From positions 23,684,001 to 23,748,000 of the forward strand of contig OZ024741.1 in NCBI GenBank assembly GCA_964016885.1: a DNA stretch of 64,000 nt. Reading direction: 5' to 3'. How positions within the stretch are numbered: the stretch's first letter is position 1; each line of letters starts with the position of its first letter. Shown one piece after another: positions 1 through 33,701 of this stretch. This DNA is from Eledone cirrhosa. Its lineage: Eukaryota. The notes beneath the pieces are model-generated. The model searched no databases, was not told where the DNA came from, and saw only the letters and a list, made by a program, of their open reading frames with translations. Position numbers and translations under genes: made by a program.

Positions 1-3000
1 TGGATAGGACACCAGTCTATCAGAGGGTTAACACACAGGTGAAGAACAATTCCAACTGGATAGGACACCAGTCTATCAGAGGGTTAACACTCAGCTGAAG
101 AACAATTCCAACTGGATAGGACACCAGTCTATCACAGGGTTAACACTCAGCTGAAAAACAATTCCAACTGCATAGGACACCAGTCTATTAGAGGGTTATC
201 ACTCAGCTGAAGAACAATTCCAACTGGATAGGACACCAGTCTATCAGAGGGTTAACACTCATCTGAAGAACAATTCCAACTGGATAGAACACCAGTCTAT
301 CACAGGGTTAACACTCAGCTGAAGAACAATTCCAACTGGATAGGACACCAGTCTATCACAGGGTTAACACACAGCTGAAGAACAATTCCAACTGGATAGG
401 ACACCAGTCTATCAGAGGGTTAACACTCAGCTCAAGAACAATTCCAACTGGATAGGACACCAATCTATCAGAGGGTTAGCACTAAGCTGAAGAACAATTC
501 CATCTGGATAGGACACCAGTCTATCACAGGGTTAACACACAGCAGAAGAACAATTCCAACTGGATAGGACACAAGTCTATCACAGGGTTAACACTCAGCT
601 GAAGAACAATTCCAACTGGATAGGACACCAGTCTATCACAGGGTTATCACTCAGCTGAAGAACAATTCCAACTGGATAGGACACCAGTCTATCAGAGGGT
701 TATCACTCAGCTGAAGAACAATTCCAACTGGATAGGACACCAGTCTATCACAGGGTTAACACTCAGCTGAAGAACAATTCCAACTGGATAGGACACCAGT
801 CTATCACAGGGTTATCACTCAGCTGAAGAACAATTCCAACTGGATAGGACACCAGTCTATCAGAGGGTTAACACACAGCTGAAGAACAATTCCAACTGGA
901 TAGGACACCAGTCTATCAGAGGGTTATCACTCAGCTGCAGAACAATTCCAACTGGATAGGACACCAGTCTATCACAGGGTTAACACTCAGCTGTAGAACA
1001 ATTCCAACTGGATAGGACACCAGTCTATCAGAGGGTTAACACTCAGCTGAAGAACAATTCCAACTGGATAGGACATCAGTCTATCAGAGGGTTAACACTC
1101 AGCTGAAAAACAATTCCAACTGGATGGGACACCAGTCTATCACAGGGATAACACTCAGCTGAAGAACAATTCCAACTGGATAGGACACCAGTCTATCACA
1201 GGGTTAACACTCAGCTGAAGAACAATTCCAACTGGATAGGACACCAGTCTATCACAGGGTTAACACTCAGCTGAAGAACAATGCCAACTGGATAGGACAC
1301 CAGTCTATCAGAGGGTTAACACTCAGCTGAAGAACAATTCCAACTGGATAGGACACCAGTCTATCAGAGGGTTAACACTCAGCTGAAGAACAATTCCAAC
1401 TGGATAGGACACCAGTCTATCAGAGGGTTAACACTCAGCTGAAGAACAATTCCAACTGGATAGGACACCAGTCTATCACAGGGTTAACACTCAGCTGAAG
1501 AACAATTCCAACTGGATAGGACACCAGTCTATCACAGGGTTGACACTCAGCTGAAGAACAATTCCAACTGGATAGGACACCAGTCTATCAGAGGGTTAAC
1601 ACTCAGCTGAAGAACAATTCCAACTGGATAGGACACCAGTCTATCACAGGGTTAACACTCAGCTGAAGAACAATTCCAACTGGATAGGACACTAGTCTAT
1701 CACAGGGTTAACACTCAGCTGAAGAACAATTCCAACTGGATAGGACACCAGTCTATCACAGGGTTAACACTCAGCTGAAGAACAATTCCAACTGGATAGA
1801 CACCAGTCTATCACAGGGTTAACACTCAGCTGAAGAACAATTCCAACTGGATAGGACACCAGTCTATCACAGGTTTAACACCTAGCTGAAGAACAATCCC
1901 AAATGGATAGGACACCAGTCTATCACAGGGTTAACACCTACCTGAAGGACAAACCAAATGGATAGGACACCAGTCTATCACAGGGTTAACACTCAGCTGA
2001 AGAACAATCCCAAATGGATAGGACACCAGTCTATCACAGGGTTAACACTCAGCTGAAGAACAATTCCAACTGGATAGGACACCAGTCTATCACAGGGTTA
2101 ACAGCTAGCTGAAGAACAATCCCAAATGGATAGGACACCAGTCTATCACAGGGTTATCACTCAGCTGAAGAACAATTCCAACTGGATAGGACACCAGTCT
2201 ATCAGAGGGTAACACTCAGCTGAAGAACAATTCCAACTGGATAGGACACCAGTCTATCAGAGGGTTATCACTCAGCTGAAGAACAATTCCAACTGGATAG
2301 GACACCAGTCTATCAGAGGGTTAACACTCAGCTGAAGAACAATTCCAACTGGATAGGACACCAGTCTATCAGAGGGTTAACACTCAGCTGAAGAACAATT
2401 CCAACTGGATAGGACACCAGTCTATCACAGGGTTAACACTCAGCTGAAGAACAATTCCAACTGGATAGGACACCAGTCTATCACAGGGTTGACACTCAGC
2501 TGAAGAACAATTCCAACTGGATAGGACACCAGTCTATCAGAGGGTTAACACTCAGCTGAAGAACAATTCCAACTGGATAGGACACCAGTCTATCACAGGG
2601 TTAACACTCAGCTGAAGAACAATTCCAACTGGATAGGACACTAGTCTATCACAGGGTTAACACTCAGCTGAAGAACAATTCCAACTGGATAGGACACCAG
2701 TCTATCACAGGGTTAACACTCAGCTGAAGAACAATTCCAACTGGATAGACACCAGTCTATCACAGGGTTAACACTCAGCTGAAGAACAATTCCAACTGGA
2801 TAGGACACCAGTCTATCACAGGTTTAACACCTAGCTGAAGAACAATCCCAAATGGATAGGACACCAGTCTATCACAGGGTTAACACCTACCTGAAGGACA
2901 AACCAAATGGATAGGACACCAGTCTATCACAGGGTTAACACTCAGCTGAAGAACAATCCCAAATGGATAGGACACCAGTCTATCACAGGGTTAACACTCA

Positions 3001-6000
3001 GCTGAAGAACAATTCCAACTGGATAGGACACCAGTCTATCACAGGGTTAACAGCTAGCTGAAGAACAATCCCAAATGGATAGGACACCAGTCTATCACAG
3101 GGTTATCACTCAGCTGAAGAACAATTCCAACTGGATAGGACACCAGTCTATCAGAGGGTAACACTCAGCTGAAGAACAATTCCAACTGGATAGGACACCA
3201 GTCTATCAGAGGGTTATCACTCAGCTGAAGAACAATTCCAACTGGATAGGACACCAGTCTATCAGAGGGTTAACACTCAGCTGAAGAACAATTCCAACTG
3301 GATAGGACACCAGTCTATCAGAGGGTTAACACTCAGCTGAAGAACAATTCCAACTGGATAGGACACCAGTCTATCAGAGGGTTAACACTCAGCTGAAGAA
3401 CAATTCCAACTGGATAGGACACCAGTCTATCACAGGGTTAACACTCAGCTGAAGAACAATTCCTACTGGATAGGACACCAGTCTATCACAGGGTTAACAC
3501 ACAGCTGAAGAACAATTCCAACTGGATAGGACACCAGTCTATCACAGGGTTAACACTCAGCTGAAGAACAATTCCAACTGGATAGGACACCAGTCTATCA
3601 CAGGGTTAACACACAGCTGAAGAACAATTCCAACTGGATAGGACACCAGTCTATCAGAGGGTTAACACTCAGCTCAAGAACAATTCCAACTGGATAGGAC
3701 ACCAATCTATCAGAGGGTTATCACTCAGCTGAAGAACAATTCCAACTGGATAGGACACCAGTCTATCACAGGGTTAACACTCAGCTGAAGAACAATTCCA
3801 ACTGGATAGGACACCAGTCTATCAGAGGGTTATCACTCAGCTGAAGAACAATTCCAACTGAATAGGACACCAGTCTATCAGAGGGTTAACACTCAGCTGA
3901 AGAACAATTCCAACTGGATAGGACACCAGTCTATCACAGGGTTAACACTCAGCTGAAGAACAATTCCAACTAGATAGGACACCAGTCTATCACAGGGTTA
4001 ACACACAGCTGAAGAACAATTCCAACTGGATAGGACACCAGTCTATCAGAGGTTAACACTCAGCTCAAGAACAATTCCAACTGGATAGGACACCAATCTA
4101 TCAGAGGGTTATCACTCAGCTGAAGAACAATTCCATCTGGATAGGACACCAGTCTATCAGAGGGTTAACACACAGCTGAAGAACAATTCCAACTGGATGG
4201 GACACCAGTCTATCACAGGGTTATCACTCAGCTGAAGAACAATTCCAACTGGATAGGGCACCAGTCTATCAGAGGGTTAACACTCAGCTGAAGAACAATT
4301 CCAACTGGATAGGACATCAGTCTATCAGAGGGTTAACACTCAGCTGAAAAACAATTCCAACTGGATAGGACACCAGTCTATCACAGGGTTAACACTCAGC
4401 TGAAGAACAATTCCAACTGGATAGGACACCAGTCTATCACAGGGTTAACACTCAGCTGAAGAACAATTCCAACTGGATAGGACACCAGTCTATCACAGGG
4501 TTAACACACAGCTGAAGAACAATCCCAACTGGATAGGACACCAGTCTATCACAGGGTTAACACTCAGCTGAAGAACAATGCCAACTGGATAGGACACCAG
4601 TCTATCAGAGGGTTAACACTCAGCTGAAGAACAATTCCAACTGGATAGGACACCAGTCTATCAGAGGGTTAACACTCAGCTGAAGAACAATTCCAACTGG
4701 ATAGGACACCAGTCTATCAGAGGGTTAACACTCAGCTGAAGAACAATTCCAACTGGATAGGACACCAGTCTATCACAGGGTTAACACTCAGCTGAAGAAC
4801 AATTCCAACTGGATAGGACACCAGTCTATCACAGGGTTAACACTCAGCTGAAGAACAATTCCAACTGGATAGGACACCAGTCTATCAGAGGGTTAACACT
4901 CAGCTGAAGAACAATTCCAACTGGATAGGACACCAGTCTATCACAGGGTTAACACTCAGCTGAAGAACAATTCCAACTGGATAGGACACCAGTCTATCAC
5001 AGGGTTAACACTCAGCTGAAGAACAATTCCAACTGGATAGGACACCAGTCTATCAGAGGGTTAACACTCAGCTGAAGAACAATTCCAACTGGATAGGACA
5101 CCAGTCTATCACAGGGTTAACACTCAGCTGAAGAACAATTCCTACTGGTTAGGACACCAGTCTATCACAGGGTTAACACACAGCTGAAGAACAATTCCAA
5201 CTGGATAGGACACCAGTCTATCACAGGGTTAACACTCAGCTGAAGAACAATTCCAACTGGATAGGACACCAGTCTATCACAGGGTTAACACACAGCTGAA
5301 GAACAATTCCAACTGGATAGGACACCAGTCTATCAGAGGGTTAACACTCAGCTCAAGAACAATTCCAACTGGATAGGACACCAATCTATCAGAGGGTTAT
5401 CACTCAGCTGAAGAACAATTCCAACTGGATAGGACACGAGTCTATCAGAGGGTTAACACACAGCTGAAGAACAATTCCAACTGGATAGGACACAAGTCTA
5501 TCACAGGGTTATCACTCAGCTGAAGAACAATTCCAACTGAATAGGACACCAGTCTATCAGAGGGTAAACACTCAGCTGAAGAACAATTCCAACTGGATAG
5601 GACACCAGTCTATCACAGGGTTATCACTCAGCTGAAGAACAATTCCAAATGGATAGGACACCAGTCTATCAGAGGGTTATCACTCAGCTGAAGAACAATT
5701 CCAACTGGATAGGACACCAGTCTACCAGAGGGTTAACACACAGCTGAAGAACAATTCCAACTGGATAGGACACCAGTCTATCACAGGGTTAACACTCAGC
5801 TGAAGAACAATTCCAACTGGATAGGACACCAGTCTATCACAGGGTTATCACTCAGCTGAAGAACAATTCCAACTGGATAGGACACCAGTCTATCAGAGGG
5901 TTAACACACAGCTGAAGAACAATTCCAACTGGATAGGACACCAGTCTATCAGAGGGTTAACACTCAGCTGAAGAACAATTCCAACTGGATAGGACACCAG

Positions 6001-9000
6001 TCTATCACAGGGTTAACATTCAGCTGAAGAACAATTCCAACTGGATAGGACACCAGTCTATCAGAGGCTTATCACTCAGCTGAAGAACAATTCCAACTGA
6101 ATAGGACACCAGTCTATCAGAGGGTTAACACTCAGCTGAAGAACAATTCCAACTGGATAGGACACCAGTCTATCACAGGGTTAACACTCAGCTGAAGAAC
6201 AATTCCAACTGGATAGGACACCAGTCTATCACAGGGTTAACACACAGCTGGAGAACAATTCCAGCTGGATAGGACACCAGTCTATCAGAGGTTAACACTC
6301 AGCTCAAGAACAATTCCAACTGGATAGGACACCAATCTATCAGAGGGTTATCACTCAGCTGAAGAACAATTCCATCTGGATAGGACACCAGTCTATCAGA
6401 GGGTTAACACACAGCTGAAGAACAATTCCAACTGGATGGGACACCAGTCTATCACAGGGTTATCACTCAGCTGAAGAACAATTCCAACTGGATAGGACAC
6501 CAGTCTATCAGAGGGTTAACACACAGCTGAAGAACAATTCCAACTGGATAGGACACCAGTCTATCTCAGGGTTAACACTCAGCTGAAGAACAATTCCAAC
6601 TGGATAGGACACCAGTCTATCACAGGGTTATCACTCAGCTGAAGAACAATTCCAACTGGATAGGACACCAGTCTATCAGAGGGTTAACACACAGCTGAAG
6701 AACAATTCCAACTGGATAGGACACCAGTCTATCAGAGGGTTATCACTCAGCTGCAGAACAATTCCAACTGGATAGGACACCAGTCTATCACAGGGTTAAC
6801 ACTCAGCTGAAGAACAATTCCAACTGGATAGGACACCAGTCTATCAGAGGGTTAACACTCAGCTGAAGAACAATTCCAACTGGATAGGACACCAGTCTAT
6901 CAGAGGGTTAACACTCAGCTGAAAAACAATTCCAACTGGATAGGACACCAGTCTATCAGAGGGTTAACACTCAGCTGAAGAACAATTCCAACTGGATAGG
7001 ACACCAGTCTATCACAGGGTTAACACTCAGCTGAAGAACAATTCCAACTGGATAGGACACCAGTCTATCACAGGGTTATCACTCAGCTGAAGAACAATTC
7101 CAACTGGATAGGACACCAGTCTATCAGAGGGTTAACACACAGCTGAAGAACAATTCCAACTGGATAGGACACCAGTCTATCAGAGGGTTATCACTCAGCT
7201 GCAGAACAATTCCAACTGGATAGGACACCAGTCTATCACAGGGTTAACACTCAGCTGAAGAACAATTCCAACTGGATAGGACACCAGTCTATCAGAGGGT
7301 TAACACTCAGCTGAAGAACAATTCCAACTGGATAGGACATCAGTCTATCAGAGGGTTAACACTCAGCTGAAAAACAATTCCAACTGGATGGGACACCAGT
7401 CTATCACAGGGATAACACTCAGCTGAAGAACAATTCCAACTGGATAGGACACCAGTCTATCACAGGGTTAACACTCAGCTGAAGAACAATTCCAACTGGA
7501 TAGGACACCAGTCTATCACAGGGTTAACACTCAGCTGAAGAACAATGCCAACTGGATAGGACACCAGTCTATCAGAGGGTTAACACTCAGCTGAAGAACA
7601 ATTCCAACTGGATAGGACACCAGTCTATCAGAGGGTTAACACTCAGCTGAAGAACAATTCCAACTGGATAGGACACCAGTCTATCAGAGGGTTAACACTC
7701 AGCTGAAGAACAATTCCAACTGGATAGGACACCAGTCTATCACAGGGTTAACACTCAGCTGAAGAACAATTCCAACTGGATAGGACACCAGTCTATCACA
7801 GGGTTGACACTCAGCTGAAGAACAATTCCAACTGGATAGGACACCAGTCTATCAGAGGGTTAACACTCAGCTGAAGAACAATTCCAACTGGATAGGACAC
7901 CAGTCTATCACAGGGTTAACACTCAGCTGAAGAACAATTCCAACTGGATAGGACACTAGTCTATCACAGGGTTAACACTCAGCTGAAGAACAATTCCAAC
8001 TGGATAGGACACCAGTCTATCACAGGGTTAACACTCAGCTGAAGAACAATTCCAACTGGATAGACACCAGTCTATCACAGGGTTAACACTCAGCTGAAGA
8101 ACAATTCCAACTGGATAGGACACCAGTCTATCACAGGTTTAACACCTAGCTGAAGAACAATCCCAAATGGATAGGACACCAGTCTATCACAGGGTTAACA
8201 CCTACCTGAAGGACAAACCAAATGGATAGGACACCAGTCTATCACAGGGTTAACACTCAGCTGAAGAACAATCCCAAATGGATAGGACACCAGTCTATCA
8301 CAGGGTTAACACTCAGCTGAAGAACAATTCCAACTGGATAGGACACCAGTCTATCACAGGGTTAACAGCTAGCTGAAGAACAATCCCAAATGGATAGGAC
8401 ACCAGTCTATCACAGGGTTATCACTCAGCTGAAGAACAATTCCAACTGGATAGGACACCAGTCTATCAGAGGGTAACACTCAGCTGAAGAACAATTCCAA
8501 CTGGATAGGACACCAGTCTATCAGAGGGTTATCACTCAGCTGAAGAACAATTCCAACTGGATAGGACACCAGTCTATCAGAGGGTTAACACTCAGCTGAA
8601 GAACAATTCCAACTGGATAGGACACCAGTCTATCAGAGGGTTAACACTCAGCTGAAGAACAATTCCAACTGGATAGGACACCAGTCTATCACAGGGTTAA
8701 CACTCAGCTGAAGAACAATTCCAACTGGATAGGACACCAGTCTATCACAGGGTTGACACTCAGCTGAAGAACAATTCCAACTGGATAGGACACCAGTCTA
8801 TCAGAGGGTTAACACTCAGCTGAAGAACAATTCCAACTGGATAGGACACCAGTCTATCACAGGGTTAACACTCAGCTGAAGAACAATTCCAACTGGATAG
8901 GACACTAGTCTATCACAGGGTTAACACTCAGCTGAAGAACAATTCCAACTGGATAGGACACCAGTCTATCACAGGGTTAACACTCAGCTGAAGAACAATT

Positions 9001-12000
9001 CCAACTGGATAGACACCAGTCTATCACAGGGTTAACACTCAGCTGAAGAACAATTCCAACTGGATAGGACACCAGTCTATCACAGGTTTAACACCTAGCT
9101 GAAGAACAATCCCAAATGGATAGGACACCAGTCTATCACAGGGTTAACACCTACCTGAAGGACAAACCAAATGGATAGGACACCAGTCTATCACAGGGTT
9201 AACACTCAGCTGAAGAACAATCCCAAATGGATAGGACACCAGTCTATCACAGGGTTAACACTCAGCTGAAGAACAATTCCAACTGGATAGGACACCAGTC
9301 TATCACAGGGTTAACAGCTAGCTGAAGAACAATCCCAAATGGATAGGACACCAGTCTATCACAGGGTTATCACTCAGCTGAAGAACAATTCCAACTGGAT
9401 AGGACACCAGTCTATCAGAGGGTAACACTCAGCTGAAGAACAATTCCAACTGGATAGGACACCAGTCTATCAGAGGGTTATCACTCAGCTGAAGAACAAT
9501 TCCAACTGGATAGGACACCAGTCTATCAGAGGGTTAACACTCAGCTGAAGAACAATTCCAACTGGATAGGACACCAGTCTATCAGAGGGTTAACACTCAG
9601 CTGAAGAACAATTCCAACTGGATAGGACACCAGTCTATCAGAGGGTTAACACTCAGCTGAAGAACAATTCCAACTGGATAGGACACCAGTCTATCACAGG
9701 GTTAACACTCAGCTGAAGAACAATTCCTACTGGATAGGACACCAGTCTATCACAGGGTTAACACACAGCTGAAGAACAATTCCAACTGGATAGGACACCA
9801 GTCTGTCACAGGGTTAACACTCAGCTGAAGAACAATTCCAACTGGATAGGACACCAGTCTATCACAGGGTTAACACACAGCTGAAGAACAATTCCAACTG
9901 GATAGGACACCAGTCTATCAGAGGGTTAACACTCAGCTCAAGAACAATTCCAACTGGATAGGACACCAATCTATCAGAGGGTTATCACTCAGCTGAAGAA
10001 CAATTCCAACTGGATAGGACACCAGTCTATCACAGGGTTAACACTCAGCTGAAGAACAATTCCAACTGGATAGGACACCAGTCTATCAGAGGGTTATCAC
10101 TCAGCTGAAGAACAATTCCAACTGAATAGGACACCAGTCTATCAGAGGGTTAACACTCAGCTGAAGAACAATTCCAACTGGATAGGACACCAGTCTATCA
10201 CAGCGTTAACACTCAGCTGAAGAACAATTCCAACTAGATAGGACACCAGTCTATCACAGGGTTAACACACAGCTGAAGAACAATTCCAACTGGATAGGAC
10301 ACCAGTCTATCAGAGGTTAACACTCAGCTCAAGAACAATTCCAACTGGATAGGACACCAATCTATCAGAGGGTTATCACTCAGCTGAAGAACAATTCCAT
10401 CTGGATAGGACACCAGTCTATCAGAGGGTTAACACACAGCTGAAGAACAATTCCAACTGGATGGGACACCAGTCTATCACAGGGTTATCACTCAGCTGAA
10501 GAACAATTCCAACTGGATAGGGCACCAGTCTATCAGAGGGTTAACACTCAGCTGAAGAACAATTCCAACTGGATAGGACATCAGTCTATCAGAGGGTTAA
10601 CACTCAGCTGAAAAACAATTCCAACTGGATAGGACACCAGTCTATCACAGGGTTAACACTCAGCTGAAGAACAATTCCAACTGGATAGGACACCAGTCTA
10701 TCACAGGGTTAACACTCAGCTGAAGAACAATTCCAACTGGATAGGACACCAGTCTATCACAGGGTTAACACACAGCTGAAGAACAATCCCAACTGGATAG
10801 GACACCAGTCTATCACAGGGTTAACACTCAGCTGAAGAACAATGCCAACTGGATAGGACACCAGTCTATCAGAGGGTTAACACTCAGCTGAAGAACAATT
10901 CCAACTGGATAGGACACCAGTCTATCAGAGGGTTAACACTCAGCTGAAGAACAATTCCAACTGGATAGGACACCAGTCTATCAGAGGGTTAACACTCAGC
11001 TGAAGAACAATTCCAACTGGATAGGACACCAGTCTATCACAGGGTTAACACTCAGCTGAAGAACAATTCCAACTGGATAGGACACCAGTCTATCACAGGG
11101 TTAACACTCAGCTGAAGAACAATTCCAACTGGATAGGACACCAGTCTATCAGAGGGTTAACACTCAGCTGAAGAACAATTCCAACTGGATAGGACACCAG
11201 TCTATCACAGGGTTAACACTCAGCTGAAGAACAATTCCAACTGGATAGGACACCAGTCTATCACAGGGTTAACACTCAGCTGAAGAACAATTCCAACTGG
11301 ATAGGACACCAGTCTATCAGAGGGTTAACACTCAGCTGAAGAACAATTCCAACTGGATAGGACACCAGTCTATCACAGGGTTAACACTCAGCTGAAGAAC
11401 AATTCCTACTGGTTAGGACACCAGTCTATCACAGGGTTAACACACAGCTGAAGAACAATTCCAACTGGATAGGACACCAGTCTATCACAGGGTTAACACT
11501 CAGCTGAAGAACAATTCCAACTGGATAGGACACCAGTCTATCACAGGGTTAACACACAGCTGAAGAACAATTCCAACTGGATAGGACACCAGTCTATCAG
11601 AGGGTTAACACTCAGCTCAAGAACAATTCCAACTGGATAGGACACCAATCTATCAGAGGGTTATCACTCAGCTGAAGAACAATTCCAACTGGATAGGACA
11701 CGAGTCTATCAGAGGGTTAACACACAGCTGAAGAACAATTCCAACTGGATAGGACACAAGTCTATCACAGGGTTATCACTCAGCTGAAGAACAATTCCAA
11801 CTGAATAGGACACCAGTCTATCAGAGGGTAAACACTCAGCTGAAGAACAATTCCAACTGGATAGGACACCAGTCTATCACAGGGTTATCACTCAGCTGAA
11901 GAACAATTCCAAATGGATAGGACACCAGTCTATCAGAGGGTTATCACTCAGCTGAAGAACAATTCCAACTGGATAGGACACCAGTCTACCAGAGGGTTAA

Positions 12001-18000: not shown

Positions 18001-21000
18001 CAATTCCAACTGGATAGGACACCAGTCTATCACAGGGTTAACACTCAGCTGAAGAACAATTCCAACTGGATAGGACACCAGTCTATCACAGGGTTAACCC
18101 ACAGCTGAAGAACAATTCCAATTGGATAGGACACCAGTCTATCACAGGGTTAACCCACAGCTGAAGAACAATTTCAAATGAATAGGACACCAGTCTATCA
18201 GAGCGTTAACACTCAGCTGAAGAACAATCCCAACTGGATAGGACACCAGTCTATCAGAGGGTTATCACTCAGCTGAAGAACAATTCCAACTGGATAGGAC
18301 ACACGTCTATCACAGGGTTAACACTCAGCTGAAGAACAATTCCAACTGGATAGGACACCAGTCTATCAGAGGGTTATCACTCAGCTGAAGAACAATTCCA
18401 ACTGGATAGGACACCAGTCTATCACAGGGTTATCACTCAGCTGAAGAACAATTCCAAATGGATAGGACACCAGTCTATCAGAGGGTTATAACTCAGCTGA
18501 AGAACAATTCCAACTGGATAGGACACCAGTCTATCAGAGGGTTAACACACAGCTGAAGAACAATTCCAACTGGATAGAACACCAGTCTATCACAGGGTTA
18601 ACACTCAGCTGAAGAACAATTCCAACTGGATAGGACACCAGTCTATCACAGGGTTATCACTCAGCTGAAGAACAATTCCAACTGGATAGGACACCAGTCT
18701 ATCAGAGGGTTAACACACAGCTGAAGAACAATTCCAACTGGATAGGACACCAGTCTATCAGAGGGTTAACACACAGCTGAAGAACAATTCCAACTGGATA
18801 GGACACCAGTCTATCACAGGGTTAACACTCAGCTGAAGAACAATTCCAACTGGATAGGACACCAGTCTATCACAGGGTTAACACCTAGCTGAAGAACAAT
18901 TCCAACTGGATAGGACACCAGTCTATCACAGGGTTAACACTCAGCTGAAGAACAATTCCAACTGGATAGGACACCAGTCTATCACAGGGTTAACACTCAG
19001 CTGAAGAACAATTCCAACTGGATAGGACACCAGTCTATCAGAGGGTTAACACTCAGCTGAAGAACAATTCCAACTGGATAGGACACCAGTCTATCACAGG
19101 GTTAACACTCAGCTGAAGAACAATTCCAACTGGATAGGACACCAGTCTATCACAGGGTTAACACCTAGCTGAAGAACAATCCCAAATGGATAGGACACCA
19201 GTCTATCACAGGGTTAACACTCAGCTGAAGAACAATCCCAAATGGATAGGACACCAGTCTATCAGAAGGTTAACACTCAGCTGAAGAACAATTCCAACTG
19301 GATAGGACACCAGTCTATCAGAGTGTTAACACTCAGCTGAAGAACAATTCCAACTGGATAGGACACCAGTCTATCACAGGGTTAACACTCAGCTGAAGAA
19401 CAATTCCAACTGGATAGGACACCAGTCTATCACAGGGTTAACACTCAGCTGAAGAACAATTCCAACTGGATAGGACACCAGTCTATCACAGGGTTAACAC
19501 TCAGCTGAAGAACAATTCCAACTGGATAGGACACCAGTCTATCAGAGGGTTAACACTCAGCTGAAGAACAATTCCAACTGGATAGGACACCAGTCTATCA
19601 CAGGGTTAACACTCAGCTGAAGAACAATTCCAACTGGATAGGACACCAGTCTATCACAGGTCTAACACCTAGCTGAAGAACAATCCCAAATGGATAGGAC
19701 ACCAGTCTATCACAGGGTTAACACCTAGCTGAAGGACAAACCAAATGGATAGGACACCAGTCTATCACAGGGTTAACACTCAGCTGAACAATTCCAACTG
19801 GATAGGACACCAGTCTATCAGAGGGTTAACACACAGCTGAAGAACAATTCCAACTGGATAGGACACCAGTCTATCACAGGGTTAACACTCAGCTGAAGAA
19901 CAATTCCAACTGGATAGGACACCAGTCTATCACAGGGTTAACACCTAGCTGAAGTACAATTCCAACTGGATAGGACACCAGTCTATCACAGGGTTAACAC
20001 TCAGCTGAAGAACAATTCCAACTGGATAGGACACCAGTCTATCACAGGGTTAACACTCAGCTGAAGAACAATTCCAACTGGATAGGACACCAGTCTATCA
20101 GAGGGTTAACACTCAGCTGAAGAACAATTCCAACTGGATAGGACACCAGTCTATCACAGGGTTAACACTCAGCTGAAGAACAATTCCAACTGGATAGGAC
20201 ACCAGTCTATCACAGGGTTAACACCTAGCTGAAGAACAATCCCAAATGGATAGGACACCAGTCTATCACAGGGTTAACACTCAGCTGAAGAACAATCCCA
20301 AATGGATAGGACACCAGTCTATCAGAAGGTTAACACTCAGCTGAAGAACAATTCCAACTGGATAGGACACCAGTCTATCAGAGTGTTAACACTCAGCTGA
20401 AGAACAATTCCAACTGGATAGGACACCAGTCTATCACAGGGTTAACACTCAGCTGAAGAACAATTCCAACTGGATAGGACACCAGTCTATCACAGGGTTA
20501 ACACTCAGCTGAAGAACAATTCCAACTGGATAGGACACCAGTCTATCACAGGGTTAACACTCAGCTGAAGAACAATTCCAACTGGATAGGACACCAGTCT
20601 ATCACAGGTCTAACACCTAGCTGAAGAACAATCCCAAATGGATAGGACACCAGTCTATCACAGGGTTAACACCTAGCTGAAGGACAAACCAAATGGATAG
20701 GACACCAGTCTATCACAGGGTTAACACTCAGCTGAAGAACAATTCCAACTGGATAGGACACCAGTCTATCACAGGTCTAACACCTAGCTGAAGAACAATC
20801 CCAAATTGATAGGACACCAGTCTATCACAGGGTTAACACCTAGCTGAAGAACAATCCCAACTGGATAGGACACCAGTCTATCACAGGGTTAACACTCAGC
20901 TGAAGAACAATTCCAACTGGATAGGACACCAGTCTATCACAGGGTTAACACACAGCTGAAGAACAATTCCAACTGGATAGGACACCAGTCTATCACAGGG

Positions 21001-24000
21001 TTAACACTCAGCTGAAGAACAATTCCAACTGGATAGGACACCAGTCTATCACAGGGTTATCACTCATCTGAAGAACAATTCCAACTGAATAGGACACCAG
21101 TCTATCAGAGGGTTAACACTCAGCTGAAGAACAATTCCAACTGGATAGGACACCAGTCTATCACAGGGTTAACACTCAGCTGAAGAACAATTCCAACTGG
21201 ATAGGACACCAGTCTATCAGAGGGTTAACACTCAGCTGAAGAACAATTCCAACTGGATAGGACACCAGTCTATCAGAGGGTTAACACTCAGCTGAAAAAC
21301 AATTCCAACTGGATAGGACACCAGTCTATCAGAGGGTTAACACTCAGCTGAAGAACAATTCCAACTGGATAGGACACCAGTCTATCAGAGGGTTAACACA
21401 CAGCTGAAGAACAATTCCAACTGGATAGGACACCAGTCTATCACAGGGTTAACACTCAGCTGAAGAACAATTCCAACTGGATAGGACACCAGTCTATCAC
21501 AGGGTTAACACCTAGCTGAAGAACAATTCCAACTGGATAGGACACCAGTCTATCACAGGGTTAACACTCAGCTGAAGAACAATTCCAACTGGATAGGACA
21601 CCAGTCTATCACAGGGTTAACACTCAGCTGAAGAACAATTCCAACTGGATAGGACACCAGTCTATCACAGGGTTAACACCTAGCTGAAGAACAATCCCAA
21701 ATGGATAGGACACCAGTCTATCACAGGGTTAACACTCAGCTGAAGAACAATCCCAAATGGATAGGACACCAGTCTATCAGAAGGTTAACACTCAGCTGAA
21801 GAACAATTCCAACTGGATAGGACACCAGTCTATCACAGGGTTAATACTCAGCTGAAGAATAATTCCAACTGGATAGGACACCAGTCTATCAGAGTGTTAA
21901 CATCAGCTGAAGAACAATTCCAACTGGATAGGACACCAGTCTATCACAGGGTTAACACTCAGCTGTAGAACAATTCCAACTGGATAGGACACCAGTCTAT
22001 CACAGGGTTAACACTCAGCTGAAGAACAATTCCAACTGGATAGGACACCAGTCTATCACAGGGTTAACACTCAGCTGAAGAACAATTCCAACTGGATAGG
22101 ACACCAGTCTATCACAGGGTTAACACTCAGCTGAAGAACAATTCCAACTGGATAGGACACCAGTCTATCACAGGTCTAACACCTAGCTGAAGAACAATCC
22201 CAAATGGATAGGAAACCAGTCTATCACAGGGTTAACACCTAGCTGAAGGACAAACCAAATGGATAGGACACCAGTCTATCACAGGGTTAACACTCAGCTG
22301 AAGAACAATTCCAACTGGATAGGACACCAGTCTATCAGAGGGTTAACACTCAGCTGAAGAACAATTCCAACTGGATAGGACACCAGTCTATCAGAGGGTT
22401 AACACTCAGCTGAAGAACAATTCCAACTGGATAGGACACCAGTCTATCACAGGGTTAACACTCAGCTGAAGAACAATTCCAACTGGATAGGACACCAGTC
22501 TATCACAGGGTTAACACTCAGCTGAAGAACAATTCCAACTGGATAGGACACCAGTCTATCACAGGGTTAACACTCAGCTTAAGAACAATTCCAACTGGAT
22601 AGGACACCAGTCTATCACAGGGTTAACACTCAGCTGAAGAACAATTCCAACTGGATAGGACACCAGTCTATCACAGGTATAACACCTAGCTGAAGAACAA
22701 TCCCAAATGGATAGGACACCAGTCTATCACAGGGCTAACACCTAGCTGAAGGACAAACCAAATGGATAGGACACCAGTCTATCACAGGGTTAACACTCAG
22801 CTGAAGAACAATCCCAAATGGATAGGACACCAGTCTATCACAGGGTTAACACTCAGCTGAAGAACAATTCCAACTGGATAGGACACCAGTCTATCACAGG
22901 GTTAACAGCTAGCTGAAGAACAATCCCAAATGGATAGGACACCAGTCTATCACAGGGTTATCACTCAGCTGAAGAACAATCCCAACTGGATAGGACACCA
23001 GTCTATCAGAGGGTAACACTCAGCTGAAGAACAATTCCAACTAGATAGGACACCAGTCTATCAGAGGGTTAACACTCAGCTGAAGAACAATTCCAACTGG
23101 ATAGGACACCAGTCTATCACAGGGTTAACACTCAGCTGAAGAACAATTTCAAATGGATAGGACACCAGTCTATCAGAGGGTTAACACTCAGCTGAAGAAC
23201 AATCCCAACTGGATAGGACACCAGTCTATCACAGGGTTAACACTCAGCTGAAGAACAATTCCAACTGGATAGGACACCAGTCTATCACAGGGTTAACACA
23301 CAGCTGAAGAACAATTCCAACTGGATAGGACACCAGTCTATCACAGGGTTAACACTCAGCTGAAGAACAATTCCAACTGGATAGGACACCAGTCTATCAC
23401 AGGGTTAACCCACAGCTGAAGAACAATTCCAATTGGATAGGACACCAGTCTATCACAGGGTTAACCCACAGCTGAAGAACAATTTCAAATGAATAGGACA
23501 CCAGTCTATCAGAGCGTTAACACTCAGCTGAAGAACAATCCCAACTGGATAGGACACGAGTCTATCAGAGGGTTATCACTCAGCTGAAGAACAATTCCAA
23601 CTGGATAGGACACACGTCTATCACAGGGTTAACACTCAGCTGAAGAACAATTCCAACTGGATAGGACACCAGTCTATCAGAGGGTTATCACTCAGCTGAA
23701 GAACAATTCCAACTGGATAGGACACCAGTCTATCACAGGGTTATCACTCAGCTGAAGAACAATTCCAAATGGATAGGACACCAGTCTATCAGAGGGTTAT
23801 AACTCAGCTGAAGAACAATTCCAACTGGATAGGACACCAGTCTATCAGAGGGTTAACACACAGCTGAAGAACAATTCCAACTGGATAGAACACCAGTCTA
23901 TCACAGGGTTAACACTCAGCTGAAGAACAATTCCAACTGGATAGGACACCAGTCTATCACAGGGTTATCACTCAGCTGAAGAACAATTCCAACTGGATAG

Positions 24001-27000
24001 GACACCAGTCTATCAGAGGGTTAACACACAGCTGAAGAACAATTCCAACTGGATAGGACACCAGTCTATCAGAGGGTTAACACACAGCTGAAGAACAATT
24101 CCAACTGGATAGGACACCAGTCTATCACAGGGTTAACACTCAGCTGAAGAACAATTCCAACTGGATAGGACACCAGTCTATCACAGGGTTAACACCTAGC
24201 TGAAGAACAATTCCAACTGGATAGGACACCAGTCTATCACAGGGTTAACACTCAGCTGAAGAACAATTCCAACTGGATAGGACACCAGTCTATCACAGGG
24301 TTAACACTCAGCTGAAGAACAATTCCAACTGGATAGGACACCAGTCTATCAGAGGGTTAACACTCAGCTGAAGAACAATTCCAACTGGATAGGACACCAG
24401 TCTATCACAGGGTTAACACTCAGCTGAAGAACAATTCCAACTGGATAGGACACCAGTCTATCACAGGGTTAACACCTAGCTGAAGAACAATCCCAAATGG
24501 ATAGGACACCAGTCTATCACAGGGTTAACACTCAGCTGAAGAACAATCCCAAATGGATAGGACACCAGTCTATCAGAAGGTTAACACTCAGCTGAAGAAC
24601 AATTCCAACTGGATAGGACACCAGTCTATCAGAGTGTTAACACTCAGCTGAAGAACAATTCCAACTGGATAGGACACCAGTCTATCACAGGGTTAACACT
24701 CAGCTGAAGAACAATTCCAACTGGATAGGACACCAGTCTATCACAGGGTTAACACTCAGCTGAAGAACAATTCCAACTGGATAGGACACCAGTCTATCAC
24801 AGGGTTAACACTCAGCTGAAGAACAATTCCAACTGGATAGGACACCAGTCTATCAGAGGGTTAACACTCAGCTGAAGAACAATTCCAACTGGATAGGACA
24901 CCAGTCTATCACAGGGTTAACACTCAGCTGAAGAACAATTCCAACTGGATAGGACACCAGTCTATCACAGGTCTAACACCTAGCTGAAGAACAATCCCAA
25001 ATGGATAGGACACCAGTCTATCACAGGGTTAACACCTAGCTGAAGGACAAACCAAATGGATAGGACACCAGTCTATCACAGGGTTAACACTCAGCTGAAC
25101 AATTCCAACTGGATAGGACACCAGTCTATCAGAGGGTTAACACACAGCTGAAGAACAATTCCAACTGGATAGGACACCAGTCTATCACAGGGTTAACACT
25201 CAGCTGAAGAACAATTCCAACTGGATAGGACACCAGTCTATCACAGGGTTAACACCTAGCTGAAGTACAATTCCAACTGGATAGGACACCAGTCTATCAC
25301 AGGGTTAACACTCAGCTGAAGAACAATTCCAACTGGATAGGACACCAGTCTATCACAGGGTTAACACTCAGCTGAAGAACAATTCCAACTGGATAGGACA
25401 CCAGTCTATCAGAGGGTTAACACTCAGCTGAAGAACAATTCCAACTGGATAGGACACCAGTCTATCACAGGGTTAACACTCAGCTGAAGAACAATTCCAA
25501 CTGGATAGGACACCAGTCTATCACAGGGTTAACACCTAGCTGAAGAACAATCCCAAATGGATAGGACACCAGTCTATCACAGGGTTAACACTCAGCTGAA
25601 GAACAATCCCAAATGGATAGGACACCAGTCTATCAGAAGGTTAACACTCAGCTGAAGAACAATTCCAACTGGATAGGACACCAGTCTATCAGAGTGTTAA
25701 CACTCAGCTGAAGAACAATTCCAACTGGATAGGACACCAGTCTATCACAGGGTTAACACTCAGCTGAAGAACAATTCCAACTGGATAGGACACCAGTCTA
25801 TCACAGGGTTAACACTCAGCTGAAGAACAATTCCAACTGGATAGGACACCAGTCTATCACAGGGTTAACACTCAGCTGAAGAACAATTCCAACTGGATAG
25901 GACACCAGTCTATCACAGGTCTAACACCTAGCTGAAGAACAATCCCAAATGGATAGGACACCAGTCTATCACAGGGTTAACACCTAGCTGAAGGACAAAC
26001 CAAATGGATAGGACACCAGTCTATCACAGGGTTAACACTCAGCTGAAGAACAATTCCAACTGGATAGGACACCAGTCTATCACAGGTCTAACACCTAGCT
26101 GAAGAACAATCCCAAATGGATAGGACACCAGTCTATCACAGGGTTAACACCTAGCTGAAGGACAAACCAAATGGATAGGACACCAGTCTATCACAGGGTT
26201 AACACTCAGCTGAAGAACAATTCCAACTGGATAGGACACCAGTTTATCACAGGGTTAACACTCAGCTGAAGACCAAATTCCAACTGGATAGGACACCAGT
26301 CTATCACAGGGTTAACACCTAGCTGAAGGACAAAGCAAATGGATAGGACACCAGTCTATCACAGGGTTAACACTGGATAGGACACCAGTCTATCACAGGG
26401 TTAACACTCAGCTGAAGAACAATCCCAAATGGATACGACACCAGTCTATCACAGGGTTAACACCTAGCTGAAGGACAAACCAAATGGATAGGACACCAGT
26501 CTATCACAGGGTTAACACTCAGCTGAAGAACAATTCCAACTGGATAGGACACCAGTCTATCACAGGGTTAACACTCAGCTGAAGAACAATTCCAACTGGA
26601 TAGGACACCAGTCTATCACAGGGTTAACACTCAGCTGAAGAACAATCCCAAATGGATAGGACACCAGTCTATCACAGGGTTAACACCTAGCTGAAGGACA
26701 AACCAAATGGATAGGACACCAGTCTATCACAGGGTTAACACTCAGCTGAAGAACAATTCCAACTGGATAGGACACCAGTCTATCACAGGGTTAACACTCA
26801 GCTGAAGAACAATTCCAACTGGATAGGACACCAGTCTATCAGAGGGTTAACACTCAGCTGAAGAACAATTCCAACTGGATAGGACACCAGTCTATCACAG
26901 GGTTAACACTCAGCTGAAGAACAATTCCAACTGGATAGGACACCAGTCTATCAGAGGGTTAACACTCAGCTGAAGAACAATTCCAACTGGATAGGACACC

Positions 27001-27810
27001 AGTCTATCACAGGGTTAACACTCAGCTGAAGAACAATTCCAACTGGATAGGACACCAGTCTATCACAGGGTTAACACCTAGCTGAAGGACAAACCAAATG
27101 GATAGGACACCAGTCTATCACAGGGTTAACACTCAGCTGAAGAACAATTCCAACTGGATAGGACACCAGTCTATCACAGGGTTAACACTGAGCTGAAGAA
27201 CAATCCCAAATGGATACGACACCAGTCTATCACAGGGTTAACACCTAGCTGAAGGACAAACCAAATGGATAGGACACCAGTCTATCAGAGGGTTAACACT
27301 CAGCTGAAGAACAATTCCAACTGGATAGGACACCAGTCTATCACAGGGTTAACACTCAGCTGAAGAACAATTCCAACTGGATAGGACACCAGTCTATCAC
27401 AGGGTTAACACTCAGCTGAAGAACAATCCCAAATGGATAGGACACCAGTCTATCACAGGGTTAACACCTAGCTGAAGGACAAACCAAATGGATAGGACAC
27501 CAGTCTATCACAGGGTTAACACTCAGCTGAAGAACAATTCCAACTGGATAGGACACCAGTCTATCACAGGGTTAACACCTAGCTGAAGAACAATCCCAAA
27601 TGGATAGGACACCAGTCTATCAGAGGGTTAACACACAGCTGAAGACTGATACCCACTGGATAGGACACCAGTCTATCACAGGGTTAACACTCAGCTGAAG
27701 AACAATACAAACTGGATAGGACACCAGTCTATCACAGGGTTAACACACAGCTGAAGACTGATACCCACTGGATAGGACACCAGTCTATCAGAGGGTTAAA
27801 CACTTAGCTG
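1..27810. repeat. 56-bp tandem satellite array, about 497 copies, open at the left window edge
   Basis: Monomer tggataggacaccagtctatca(c/g)agggttaacactcagctgaagaacaattccaac starts at 1, 57, 113 and so on. It repeats without spacers up to ~27810 and contains the palindromes GTTAAC and CAGCTG. Confidence 0.99.
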
Positions 27811-29987
27811 CTGCTGATACTAATTTTAGAATAAATGGGAGAAAGACAGTCTCCCCCACATCGATTCAATAGAGGGACCAGCAATGCAAGTTGAAGGTAG
27901 TATAATACTTTAGTGAATGAAAGATATGAAGACGGGCAAGGCGGCTGGGCCTTCGGAAATAGTTGCTGAAATGCTGAAAGCATCTGGAATGGTGGGACAC
28001 ACCATGGTCACCCGGATAGTAAACCAAGTCATACAGAATGGGGTCGTACCAAAGGACTGGCGTAGCAGCATCATAATTAACTGCTACAAGGGTAAAGGAG
28101 ATGCCCTAGATAGGGGAAACTATAGAGGCATTAAATTAATTGAAGGTCATGAAGGTCACAGAAAAAGTAATAGCGCAACTAATCAGAGAGCGAATTGATC
28201 TAGATCAAATGTAGTTCAGGTTTGTGTCAGGTAAAAGTACCACAGACACTCTTTTCATTGTACGACAACTACAGGAGAAGTACCTAGCTAAAAGTAAACC
28301 CCCTATACTTAGCTTTCGTCGACCTGGAGAAAGCCTTTGACAAAGTCCCGTGCCCCATTATCTGGTGGGCTCTCAGAAAACTAGGTGTTGATGAATGGCT
28401 TGTGAGAGCTATACAAGCTATGTATAAAGAAACAGTCAGCAAGGTTAGAATTAACAACGAATATAGTGAAGAGTTTACCATAAAAGTTGGTGTTCATCAG
28501 GGCTCCGTTCTTAGCCTCCTCCTATTTATTATCACCCTCCAGGCTATAACAGAGGTGTTCAAGACAGGCTGCCCATGGGAACTCCTATACGCAGATGATC
28601 TAACGCTCATAGCTGAATCAATGGCTGAACTAGAGAAGAAATTCCAAACATGGAAGCATGGCCTAGAATCAAAAGGCCTTAAAGTTAACTTGTCTAAGAC
28701 TAAAGTTCTAATATGTAGGAAGGAAAATAGGGCACTGGTCCCATCTGGGAAATGGCCGTGCTCAGTGTGTAGGAAAGGAGTAGGCAGAAACTCCATTTTA
28801 TGTCCCAAATGCAAAGTATGGGTGCATAAAAGATGTAGTGGGATCACAGGTAAGCTATCTAAGAATATAGATTTTATATGTGGCCAGTGTTCTGATGCAA
28901 TAAGTAGCAGCAAGTGCCCACAAAATACTAGCTCATTCCATTGCACAGATGGTTCTATAGAAATAGTGGACACCTTCCGTTACCTGGGTGACAAAATCAG
29001 CAGTGGTGGAGGGTGCTCCGAAAGTACTGTAGCTAGAGTCAGAACGGGATGGAAAAAGTTCAGAGAGCTTATACCACTATTGGCCGCTAAAGGTTTCTCC
29101 CTAAAAATGAAAGGCAGGCTGTATGATTCCTGCATATGAACAGCGATGTTACATGGCAGTGAGACATGGGCCTTGTGTGCAGAGGATCTGCGCAGACTGG
29201 AGAGGAACGAAGCTTGCATGCTCCGTTGGATGTGTAATAGTAATATACGCGAACGGCAAAGCATAAATGAACTAAGTGAGAAATTAGGAATAAGAGGGAT
29301 CAGATGCTGTTTACTCGAGAGAAGACTACGTTGGTATGGTCACGTGATGCGCATGAAAGACAACAGCTGTATAAAAAAGTGCAGGGTGATAAAAATAGAC
29401 GGTAGCTACGGAGTAGGCAGACCCAGAAAAATCTGGGACGACTTGATAAATTCCGACCTCACACACTTACACCTCTCCAAGACAATGTCACTGGACCGAG
29501 ATCTTTGGCGCTACGCAGTAATACAGAAGACCCCGCCTTGCCTAAGTACAAAGAGAAACCTAGTCAGTAGGCACCTCATAACCAAAACACCCCCCCCCCC
29601 CCCCCCCCCCGACCCACTACCCCCCACCCCCATCTACACCACCCCTTTCGATGTAAAGTTATGTTGGTACCACAACATCCAATCCTAAATAAATGACGTC
29701 GTGTAGGTGTCACGACAAAAAAAACACACAGTCCACGCTGTAATGTGGCCGTGTAGGTAAAACGGTAAAAACCTCCCAATCCGCACTGTAAACGTAGTTG
29801 GTGTTAGGAAGGGCATCCGGCCGTAGAAAACCCGCCAGACAGTCCTGAGCAAGACAACCAATCTTGCCTCAAGTGGGACAATTCCTGTCCAGACCCATGC
29901 TAGCGTGGAAGATGGACGTTAAACGATGATGATGATGATGAGTGAACTGAAGCAAAATAGAATAAAGTCTTTTGTTTGAACTCACAA
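27753..29987 (-). mobile_element. Remnant of a V-domain tRNA-derived SINE, split by the RTE insertion (SINE pieces at ~27753-27828 and 29940-29987)
   Basis: 27796-27829 ttaaacacttagctgctgctgatactaattttag aligns with 31230-31264 ttaaacccccaactattgctggtaatcatttccag. 29940-29987 matches 31267-31314 at 33/48 positions without gaps. Confidence 0.75.
27828..29940 (+). mobile_element. 5'-truncated RTE-clade LINE (RT, PHD-type finger, C-terminus, 3'UTR, (GAT)n tail) with frameshifts and stops
   Basis: ORF fragments carry KAAGPSEI, NYRGIKL, GVHQGSVLS, LLYADDL, FRYLGD and LRWYGHVMR. They are collinear with the intact ORF at 37163-40282. The element ends in gacgttaaac(gat)n at ~29915-29940. Confidence 0.95.
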
Positions 29988-30111
29988 TCTTGTTTTTTTT
30001 ATATTTTGTATTTTTTTAGTAGCTAAAATCTATTCAATCTACAAAATCTCACAATGTCATGAAAGGCCATTGACATTATATGAAAATAATTGAGCAGTTC
30101 TGTGTTAATAG

Positions 30112-30362
30112 TGGTGAGTATAGAGGTGGCCCTGGGGCCAAGAACACCAGAGGCCAATGGTGGTGAATAGGCAGGTGGCCCAGGGGCCAATGGTGGTGAG
30201 TGGGGAGGTGGTCCTGGGGCCAAGGACACCAAAGGTCGATGGTGGTGAGATGGGAAGTGGTCCTAGAGTCAAGGACACCAGAGGTCGATGGTGGTGAGTA
30301 GGGAGGTGGTCCTAGGGTCAAGGACACCAGAAGTTGATGGTGGTGAGTAGGATGGTGATCCT
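30112..30362. repeat. Short degenerate ~49-bp tandem repeat (5-6 units, one 33-bp unit)
   Basis: Recurring unit tggtgagt...gaggtggtcct(a/g)gggtcaaggacaccagaggtcgatgg. Confidence 0.85.
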
Positions 30363-30547
30363 ATTAAAGGGAACAAAAAAGAAGAAAATAGATAATGAAA
30401 AGAAGAAAAAGAAAGAAGGATCAAGCGTCGAAAGAAGGGAGGGGGGGAGGGGTACTACAGCCCAGTCTGAGCGGTGCCTCAGTCATGCCTGTGGATAAGA
30501 TGACAAAAGTGTTACCACGGAGAATGACGAGAGACACCTGCTGCAAT

Positions 30548-30713
30548 CAGTGCTGGAGTTGGGACAAATGAGGCCCTGTGCTAATTAAGTTATGAAGCCC
30601 CAAACATTTGAAAATTTCATCATAAAAAATTTTTTGGCAGGAAGATGGGTCCCTCCTGGCCAATGGGGCCCTGTGGTTAAACACACCTAAACACAATGGT
30701 AAATCTGGCACTA
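30548..30713. mobile_element. hAT-like MITE
   Basis: Imperfect terminal inverted repeats cagtgctggagtt ... aaatctggcacta. The flanking 8-mers gctgcaat and actgcaag match 6/8, a possible target site duplication. Confidence 0.5.
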
Positions 30714-30826
30714 ACTGCAAGCCCAACATCCTTTCTACAATTAAAAACTATTACTTCTGAGAAGTCAACAATGTGTGTAAATACATAAATAGGTGAGGAT
30801 TATTAAACCGTGACATTAATACTTAC

Positions 30827-30864
30827 TCTTTCACTTTTTCTAAATCTTTAGGTTTGTGTTTCAA
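30827..30864 (-). CDS. CCDC61: CCDC61 coding exon 5 (38-nt micro-exon, LKHKPKDLEKVK plus 2 nt)
   Basis: Acceptor ttacctttcag and donor gtaagt. It is in frame (phase 0) with exon 4 and has coiled-coil-like composition. Support comes mainly from splice signals and frame. Confidence 0.7.
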
Positions 30865-31059
30865 CTGAAAGGTAATATTTGAAAGAGAACAGGACTAAGA
30901 ATCAATAAAAAAAAATATTTTAAAAACTAGTTACAATAATAACAATTCAATATTGAAAATGAAACATTAACTGTTTAAATCTTAACCTGTTCAAAATCAC
31001 CTCTATCAAATTTTACAAATTTAAATTTAAATCTTGAACTGAAATCTCATTATTACATC

Positions 31060-31110
31060 TAATGCTCAGTATGGCTGCAGTTCAATGACTGGAACCAGTA
31101 AAAGAATAAA
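31060..31110 (+). mobile_element. 3' tail fragment of an abundant SINE (cagtatggctgcagttcaatgactggaaccagtaaaaga)
   Basis: The same motif recurs at ~45903-45948 and ~63338-63375. Confidence 0.5.
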
Positions 31111-31121
31111 TCTAGTCGAGT

Positions 31122-31394
31122 CTAAAGTATGTCTCAAGCCAGAAGGCTCATCAGGCCGGTGTTTATCCCAGTTTTGTGGCATGAAGCGACTGAGATTCCC
31201 TCTGGACATGACACCAATCCAGCGCAGTATTAAACCCCCAACTATTGCTGGTAATCATTTCCAGCTGAGTATACTGGAGCAATGTGAAATGAAGTGTTTT
31301 GCTCAAGAACACAACACACAACCCAGTCCAGGGATGAAACCCATGACATTATGATCCTAAGTCCAACACCCTTACCACTAGACCACACACCTCC
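31122..31394 (-). mobile_element. tRNA-derived SINE with a V-domain-like core
   Basis: The minus strand starts ggaggtgtgTGGTCTAGTGGtaag (A box), followed by GGTTTCATCCC (B box-like). Internal ctgcgctggattggtgtcatgtccag resembles the V-SINE core ccctgcgatggactggcgacctgtccag as recalled. Confidence 0.8.
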
Positions 31395-31609
31395 ATATTT
31401 GTTATTAGATTTCCATACTGTTGTCTTATCAAGCGTGTGTGTACATTGATGTTCTCTCTCTTTCACTGCCTCTGTCTCTCTCCCTCTCCTCATCTCTCAC
31501 TATTATAAGCAAATGGGAGCCCACACGCTGGCTGCCCTGTAGCATCTGCAGACAATATATGATGTGTACAAACAGATGAGAGGTAGCACTGACCAAGGGC
31601 ACATCCCTT

Positions 31610-31841: not shown

Positions 31842-31940
31842 TAATCAGAAAATTAGTTATTTTACTAAATCCATCTGAGTTCTTTATTACTTTTGATATT
31901 ATTTAGAAATAAGATAGCAAAATGAGATTAAGAGAAATAC

Positions 31941-32046
31941 CTCGTCTTTAAGTTGTTTTACTTCAGACCTCAGATTTACAATGATCTGTTGTAAGGAAGT
32001 GTTATTAGGTGTTGGTTTTTGATGTAAAGGAAGTGGATAGTGTATT
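31941..32046 (-). CDS. CCDC61: CCDC61 coding exon 4: (R)IHYPLPLHQKPTPNNTSLQQIIVNLRSEVKQLKDE
   Basis: Acceptor ctattgtttcag, donor gtattt, 106 nt, completing the phase-2 Arg codon. Matches vertebrate CCDC61 RIHYPLPLPYQGKPDPVVLQGIIRSLKEE as recalled. Confidence 0.93.
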
Positions 32047-32139
32047 CTGAAACAATAGCAGACAGTATTTGAATAAAGTACAGGTATTCTTTTAAATACA
32101 TTACAGCAGAAAACAATTTATATACATACATACATGGTG

Positions 32140-33220: not shown

Positions 33221-33701
33221 TGATGACTTGGTCTGTGATGGTTCATCCAGCCTATGCTAGCATGGAAAAGTGGATGTTAAATGATGATGATGATATACAT
33301 ACATAATCTCAGGTCTCGAATAACCGTCCCTCCCTACTTATTAATATTTCAGATTTTTTCCACCTAACACTCCACCCTGCTCTTATTCCACCCACCACCC
33401 TTGCTACTTATTAAATTTTGCTAATCTCCAGCAAAATTCTATTTTAATTTTCTTTATACATTAAAAAACATTAAACATGACAAAAAAAGTACATTACTAG
33501 AAATCCCATACATTATAAAATAATTGGTTGGGGTCTCAATATGTAAACTAAACTACTAATTCTGGTCTTTAAAAAAAATCAACGGAGACAACCTAGAAAA
33601 ATTACTGATTCCCCCCTCTTTCATTAGAAATCTGGTAATAAAAGGGTTAATGAAATTAAAGCAGAGTTAGTGGTGTTAATAAAACTTTAAGCTATACTAA
33701 C

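Follow-up and report, generated by a model that had tools for sequence, protein, structure and literature searches.

A 102-kb satellite at a single intronic locus of Eledone cirrhosa, probably grown in place from a segment of a tRNA-CORE SINE

A 64,000-nucleotide stretch of the Eledone cirrhosa genome (GenBank assembly GCA_964016885.1, contig OZ024741.1, G000:C2:23,684,001-23,748,000; hereafter the window) holds the right-hand end of a 102-kb satellite array that lies in an intron of the gene CCDC61. It is likely that this satellite, which occupies a single locus, took its unit from a short interspersed nuclear element (SINE) of the tRNA-CORE type and grew in place from an old, decayed copy of that element in the CCDC61 intron, and the sequence comparisons support the idea that a segment from inside the element was multiplied in tandem next to a remnant of the same copy that stayed single. 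An original prediction, made from the letters of the window, had described a 28-kb satellite growing out of a V-domain SINE. The array is indeed in the window and a SINE segment does appear to have been amplified in place, but the size falls well short of the whole array, and the picture of one SINE flanking it at both ends was not borne out.

With 150 kb of further leftward sequence taken in, the whole array could be placed at G000:C2:23,609,558-23,711,810, 23.6 Mb into a 416-Mb contig and within a gene. It measures 102.25 kb, 74.4 kb of which lie left of the window, and contains ~1,825 units of 56 bp, ~497 of them within the window. An anchor sequence matched 1,822 times in the array, the spacing between successive matches being 56 bp in 1,748 of 1,821 cases. 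The 29-mer that spans the junction between units has 1,191 exact matches genome-wide and all 1,191 are within the array, which therefore represents a single locus.

The common unit aligns over all 56 of its bases to positions ~76-133 of a 285-bp SINE consensus built from 30 copies of the family, with a score of 65 that none of 2,000 shuffled controls reached (mean 23.5 ± 3.2, z 12.9); it is also recovered by a profile made from 71 of 74 loci (E 8e-9). The family was searched for with positions 31122-31400, which yielded 6,143 first-look candidates genome-wide, 40 of which were scored. Within its 32-bp core the unit differs from the consensus by four transitions, two of them at CpG, and the ungapped match of 24 of 32 bases that had been predicted between this core and the SINE at 31202-31233 was reproduced on recomputation. 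Outside the array there were 94 matches to the core at one mismatch or fewer, and all nine of the loci that were fetched proved to be SINE copies; the exact 30-bp core of the unit is present in three ordinary dispersed copies (L107, L108 and L109).

At its right-hand end the array runs on into SINE sequence that was not amplified and that is interrupted by a long interspersed nuclear element (LINE). The features concerned are as follows.

1-27810, no strand assigned: the right-hand 27.8 kb of the 56-bp satellite array, head-to-tail, from Tandem Repeats Finder and the extended assembly sequence.
27753-27827, minus strand: the last unit and the unamplified SINE remnant, colinear with profile positions 87-152 (45.3 bits, E 4.5e-15).
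27828-29938, plus strand: a 5'-truncated retrotransposon lacking long terminal repeats (non-LTR) within the SINE remnant, with reverse transcriptase (RT) and PHD domains, stops, frameshifts and a (GAT)n tail.
29939-29990, minus strand: the SINE remnant resuming, from profile position 157 on, in the CORE region (27/36 identical to the consensus, E 5e-5).

The stretch past the last monomer scored 47.5 against the consensus (z 9.6) and the stretch beyond the LINE scored 46 (z 6.2), in each case with none of 2,000 shuffles doing as well, and the profile matches 87-152 and 157-204 are colinear across the LINE. The terminal unit is thereby extended along the SINE from ~133 to ~192-204, short of the SINE 5' end. 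These results bear out the SINE-like sequence that had been predicted at 27796-27829 (22/34 bases) and most of the alignment said to resume at 29940-29987 (33/48 against the neighbouring SINE), although the last dozen bases of the latter probably belong to a different alignment, in the B-box region; the remnant beyond the LINE has probably lost an internal part and passes straight to a B-box-like stretch, in the manner of L059. No subfamily matching the right junction exactly was found in a genome search, and looser patterns led to 51 and 15 ordinary copies. The LINE itself is 75% identical to a longer copy near 37160-40560, and no clear target-site duplication was found around it. As a separate observation, the CORE block of the remnant beyond the LINE also occurs in SINE-like families with different 3' parts (L059-L061), among which L059 is similarly shortened.

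Several observations weigh against growth in place. The original prediction had expected the 3' part of the SINE at the left end of the array, naming its absence as one of the results that would refute the proposal, and when the left end was retrieved this part was absent. Against the SINE consensus, the 120 bases before the array were equalled in score by 322 of 2,000 shuffles, a profile search of the left flank gave no match in 600 bp, and over the 1.2 kb between the array and the nearest exon on that side the sole profile match was of low complexity (E 0.29). SINE sequence thus adjoins the array on the right only, the 3' part being absent on the left, and the array cannot be claimed to lie within a complete element. 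On the right, the tRNA head is not recognisable beyond the remnant that follows the LINE. The age of the seed is also subject to a caveat: the unamplified remnant is ~75% identical to the consensus (20/27; 27/36), compared with an average of 91% for 58 dispersed copies, a figure that overstates the family mean because these copies were chosen for likeness to a young copy or to a consensus motif, and with 79% for 13 copies chosen by another motif; the higher identity of the dispersed copies points to a probably old seed. Shuffled sequences fold as well as the monomer does (z -0.35 and -0.33), so no structural trigger was found. Finally, the proposed history of the unit and the length of the array are read from this one assembly. 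A hairpin trigger acting through the dimer (z -2.7) was considered and rejected, as the palindrome pairs between copies and the z value is no evidence because shuffling loses the tandem structure.

The missing left part leaves the SINE origin standing, because the squamate satellites described in PMC10702118 are mostly extended along the SINE at one end, loci with no or two extended ends being minor variants (here and below, published studies are cited from excerpts of the articles and their supplements). The left flank is unique, a genome search having returned itself alone, and when it was compared with each of 62 single SINE loci the best score, 48.5, fell on AT-rich sequence outside the SINE. 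Among seven sequencing runs, three from one sample, possibly the source of the assembly, contain 0.92-0.94 of the words of this flank and one from another organism 0.09, figures that do not count as evidence on the array. A first 56-bp tandem duplication, through slippage or unequal repair, would have created the unit junction, the SINE 3' part on the left would have been lost before or during array growth, and the LINE would have entered the SINE remnant at some point in this history. It is possible, if doubtful, that the seed was a SINE fragment already without its 3' part, in which case the unit would be a chimera of flank and SINE with its first few bases taken from the flank. SINE homology on the left does end where the unit starts, and profile alignments begin at 82-87 rather than 76, but the pairwise alignment spans all 56 bases with no gap at that end. 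Such a chimera agrees with growth in place and alters only the order of events. One small coincidence at the two ends, probably due to chance, is a 10-base word that occurs at 27817-27826 and again in L048, ~55 bases before the array begins; its right copy overlaps a likeness to the LINE at the LINE's 5' junction.

Growth in place from the SINE remnant had also been argued from the edge monomers, which were thought to carry an ancestral variant limited to the edge and closer to the SINE. Of the 15 occurrences of that variant, 13 fall within the part of the array that lies upstream of the window, and it is no closer to the family than the common unit, scoring 62 vs 65 against the consensus and 23.0 vs 24.8 bits against the profile. 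Its apparent closeness arose because the neighbouring SINE copy used for comparison has a deletion at that point, which is private among the 14 aligned copies displayed and amounts to 9 bases against the profile. The notion of ancestral edge units survives in a narrower form, through two other features: the third A of the SINE is found in the last unit only (1 match), compared with 1,497 units that have the two-A form, and a variant carried by just 16 of the ~1,825 units is common to the first unit and the last.

The SINE that had been compared with the array lies close by and is not its parent.

31120-31395, minus strand: a separate full-length tRNA-CORE SINE copy in the intron preceding that of the array, with a deletion adjoining the amplified segment.

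Read on the minus strand, the family consensus begins with a tRNA-like head, which is followed by a CORE block, then by a G+C-rich segment and finally by a tail of short repeats. Motifs resembling the A and B boxes and the short-repeat 3' end were read by eye, and there was no Rfam tRNA match. The V-domain label given to the amplified segment was rejected. A 27-nt motif of BivaCORE-SINE2 (supplement, PMC4824008) fits the SINE at 31251-31277 in all but 3 bases, where chance would give 0 such matches, whereas a search of the window for a 24-nt Vhc motif, with 3 mismatches allowed, found nothing. By eye, the V and Vhc sequences printed in the supplements (PMC4824008, PMC4758252) bear no resemblance to the unit or to the family consensus. 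The 39-bp Vhc block is thus missing from the window by this motif and, by eye, from the consensus. The CORE match and the absence of the Vhc motif indicate a CORE-type family, with the amplified segment 3' of the CORE. Members of the CORE-SINE superfamily such as BivaCORE-SINE2 and Cgi_CORE_1 share the tRNA-like head followed by a CORE block, and octopus OR1/OR2 are named within it (PMC4824008, PMC4758252, excerpts), but the amplified segment after the CORE is unlike the bivalve CORE families displayed there, as judged by eye. A literature sequence search for the amplified motif gave unrelated matches only. Some fish and cnidarian SINEs may carry a segment similar to the amplified piece in their 3' region, and such a motif in the 3' region of some fish V-SINEs may explain the V-domain label.

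The same SINE family has also given rise to a second satellite, with a 36-bp unit derived from its tRNA head. Of the 36 bases of this unit, 32 align to SINE consensus positions 249-281, a result that none of 2,000 single-base shuffles reached. At L109 the tRNA head passes into 6.1 kb of 36-bp repeats, which stop at the 5' end of the SINE (L109/L116, G000:C26:21,956,790-21,962,931). A genome search with this array gave 95 candidates, 40 of which were scored, and nine loci (L120-L127 included), among the first 150 of 472 matches, were examined. These nine, on C25, C26 and C1284, have arrays of 55-163 units (2-6 kb each) with the same junction; SINE body lies within 45 bp of the array start in five and at 183 bp in one, one has a short stub, and two have none. 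The nine do not all represent separate events, since the same rearranged SINE body is found at L120 and L121 and the same right flank at L122 and L123. Duplication of parts of the element is frequent in this family: adjacent overlapping SINE matches were present at 11 of 83 SINE loci, some of which may be neighbouring insertions and four of which come from the nine loci chosen by the 56-bp monomer pattern. Also observed were SINE copies with two or three tandem duplications of 60-198 bp of themselves (L111, L112, L114, L015, L034 and L020), which are possible satellite seeds, and a TG-rich array with a 60-bp unit, at least 17 kb long, at L117-L118 (G000:C26:21,970,375 onwards).

Taken together, one cephalopod CORE-SINE family may have produced, side by side, a satellite born in place and a mobile one, a reading that we offer tentatively. 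The 56-bp unit could, with the same reserve, have reached 102 kb at its intronic birthplace and never left, and the 36-bp unit might have moved between SINE copies on small chromosomes through SINE homology or SINE mobility, an idea that we hold no more firmly. If this were true, dispersed SINE copies would serve new satellites as seed and as landing site alike, and dissemination would be testable locus by locus. Mobility of this kind bears on the 56-bp array too, whose unit could have been born elsewhere from the same SINE family, copied into the remnant by gene conversion or circle insertion, and then expanded. The left flank is not SINE, and the 36-bp satellite shows the same junction beside several SINE copies whose flanks differ, so that such transfer seems to occur in this genome; but exact junction 29-mers outside the array number 0, a looser junction pattern is likewise found in 0 of the younger copies, and both termini share the variant present in so few units, which makes a birth elsewhere improbable.

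Growth of the 56-bp array in place is also reflected in its internal organisation. Its units comprise 201 distinct sequences, and those of 56 bp average 97.5% identity to the commonest. The unit types form regional blocks, and divergence rises from left to right, from 1.2 to 2.7 differences per unit. Exact duplications inside the array are up to 4.2 kb long, the 15 longest being spaced at lags between 31 and 854 units, and exact duplicates of at least 1 kb cover 69% of the array, which is thus a mosaic of multi-kilobase internal duplications. This irregular pattern fits recent unequal exchange: exchange between misaligned units would have expanded and homogenised the array, lately by ~30-110 units per step. 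A fixed higher-order repeat was ruled out, identical units amounting to no more than 15% at any lag and the duplications being irregular. The same abundance of exact duplicates, in an array whose length is taken from the assembly, could mean that the array is real but inflated by assembly. There are, however, no N bases in the 214 kb spanning the array, which is unbroken, and the regional domains of unit types, the divergence gradient and the irregular lags show no simple doubling, so that inflation is very improbable.

Among known systems, the nearest is that of the squamate satellites sSat1-3 (PMC10702118), where, according to the excerpts, the unit is likewise a piece of a tRNA-SINE, the unit at one end continues into further SINE sequence, and long loci are homogeneous. 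Membership of that class asks for a repeat unit related to a dispersed SINE of the same genome but shorter than it (here 56 vs 285 bp), for at least four homogeneous head-to-tail middle monomers (here 1,822 anchors at the unit identity given above) and for a terminal unit that follows the SINE to its end (here the extension stops at ~192-204). The sSat units are ~70-290 nt, with up to 1,000 per locus, and are multi-locus and subtelomeric, a subtelomeric or heterochromatic position being a tendency of the class and no strict requirement, whereas the present array has a 56-bp unit in ~1,825 copies at one intronic locus of a mollusc. Molluscan SINEs with conserved domains are also found in tandem within introns of bivalves (PMC11481361), but there, in the part cited, they are whole elements in arrays of 2-15, compared with the SINE fragment repeated here; the authors of that study note that their length cut-off could miss fragment arrays. 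The excerpts of PMC12692304 and PMC12054243 regard the derivation of satellites from transposable elements as settled and their derivation from SINEs as demonstrated in reptiles. The excerpts of PMC10702118 call earlier links between SINEs and satellites inconclusive and leave open whether such satellites are restricted to squamates. SINE-derived satellites are thus already known in reptiles and are here extended to a mollusc. No SINE-derived satellite of a cephalopod was found in the open literature judged by titles, though repeat libraries in supplements may hold one. The notable features of the present case are its size, its intronic position, its taxon and its sister satellite. Direct links between SINEs and satellites are few, and this molluscan example exceeds the largest locus in the excerpts of PMC10702118 and keeps one birthplace junction. 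Its unique flanks make the array easy to type across individuals and species, so that growth rates should be measurable.

The location in a CCDC61 intron, as originally predicted, was confirmed by mapping exons with two protein homologues (P0002 and P0003); the closest named CCDC61 protein is that of an octopod. The rows for the gene, in order of transcription, are the following.

45972-46130, minus strand: CCDC61 coding exon 1, by protein homologue mapping.
40962-45502: a 34-bp array of 134 copies in the first coding intron.
35130-35210, minus strand: coding exon 2, which matches solved CCDC61 structures.
33701-33859, minus strand: coding exon 3, by protein homologue mapping.
31938-32048, minus strand: coding exon 4, by protein homologue mapping.
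30827-30864, minus strand: a predicted CCDC61 exon of 38 nt, LKHKPKDLEKVK, which opens the array-bearing intron of ~106.6 kb.

Later CCDC61 exons were mapped 75.7-135.6 kb left of the window; the exon left of the array had no match in a protein search. The predicted 38-nt exon restores the reading frame, and with it the array makes up 96% of the ~106.6-kb intron and the SINE at 31122 falls in the preceding intron. Tandem repeats account for 130,058 of the 181,766 bases of the gene (72%). Other CCDC61 introns carry unrelated arrays of 34, 42 and 19 bp, and seven other local arrays that were tested showed no match to the SINE of the 56-bp array. Since unrelated arrays are common in its introns, the SINE appears as one seed among several, and most likely the array is neutral filler in introns that are already 72% tandem repeat, the SINE having given no more than the seed. 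Retention by selection, for a regulatory or centromere-like role or to delay CCDC61 transcription, would suit an array of uniform orientation that fills nearly all of its intron, but is very improbable given the unrelated arrays in other introns, the uniqueness of the locus, and an Rfam scan that gave only two matches, both at chance level. The 130 of 182 kb taken up by tandem arrays show how the introns of CCDC61 grow.

Other repeats of the gene were noted in passing. A non-LTR retrotransposon at 37160-40279 has an open frame of 1,040 residues with endonuclease and reverse transcriptase domains and, following the RT, a PHD finger. The next CCDC61 intron, ~76.4-86.4 kb left of the window (L048-L049), contains a 10-kb array with a 42-bp unit and an internal 2-kb inverted block, and two 19-bp arrays (~390 and ~300 copies) lie in a later intron, ~91-110 kb left of the window.

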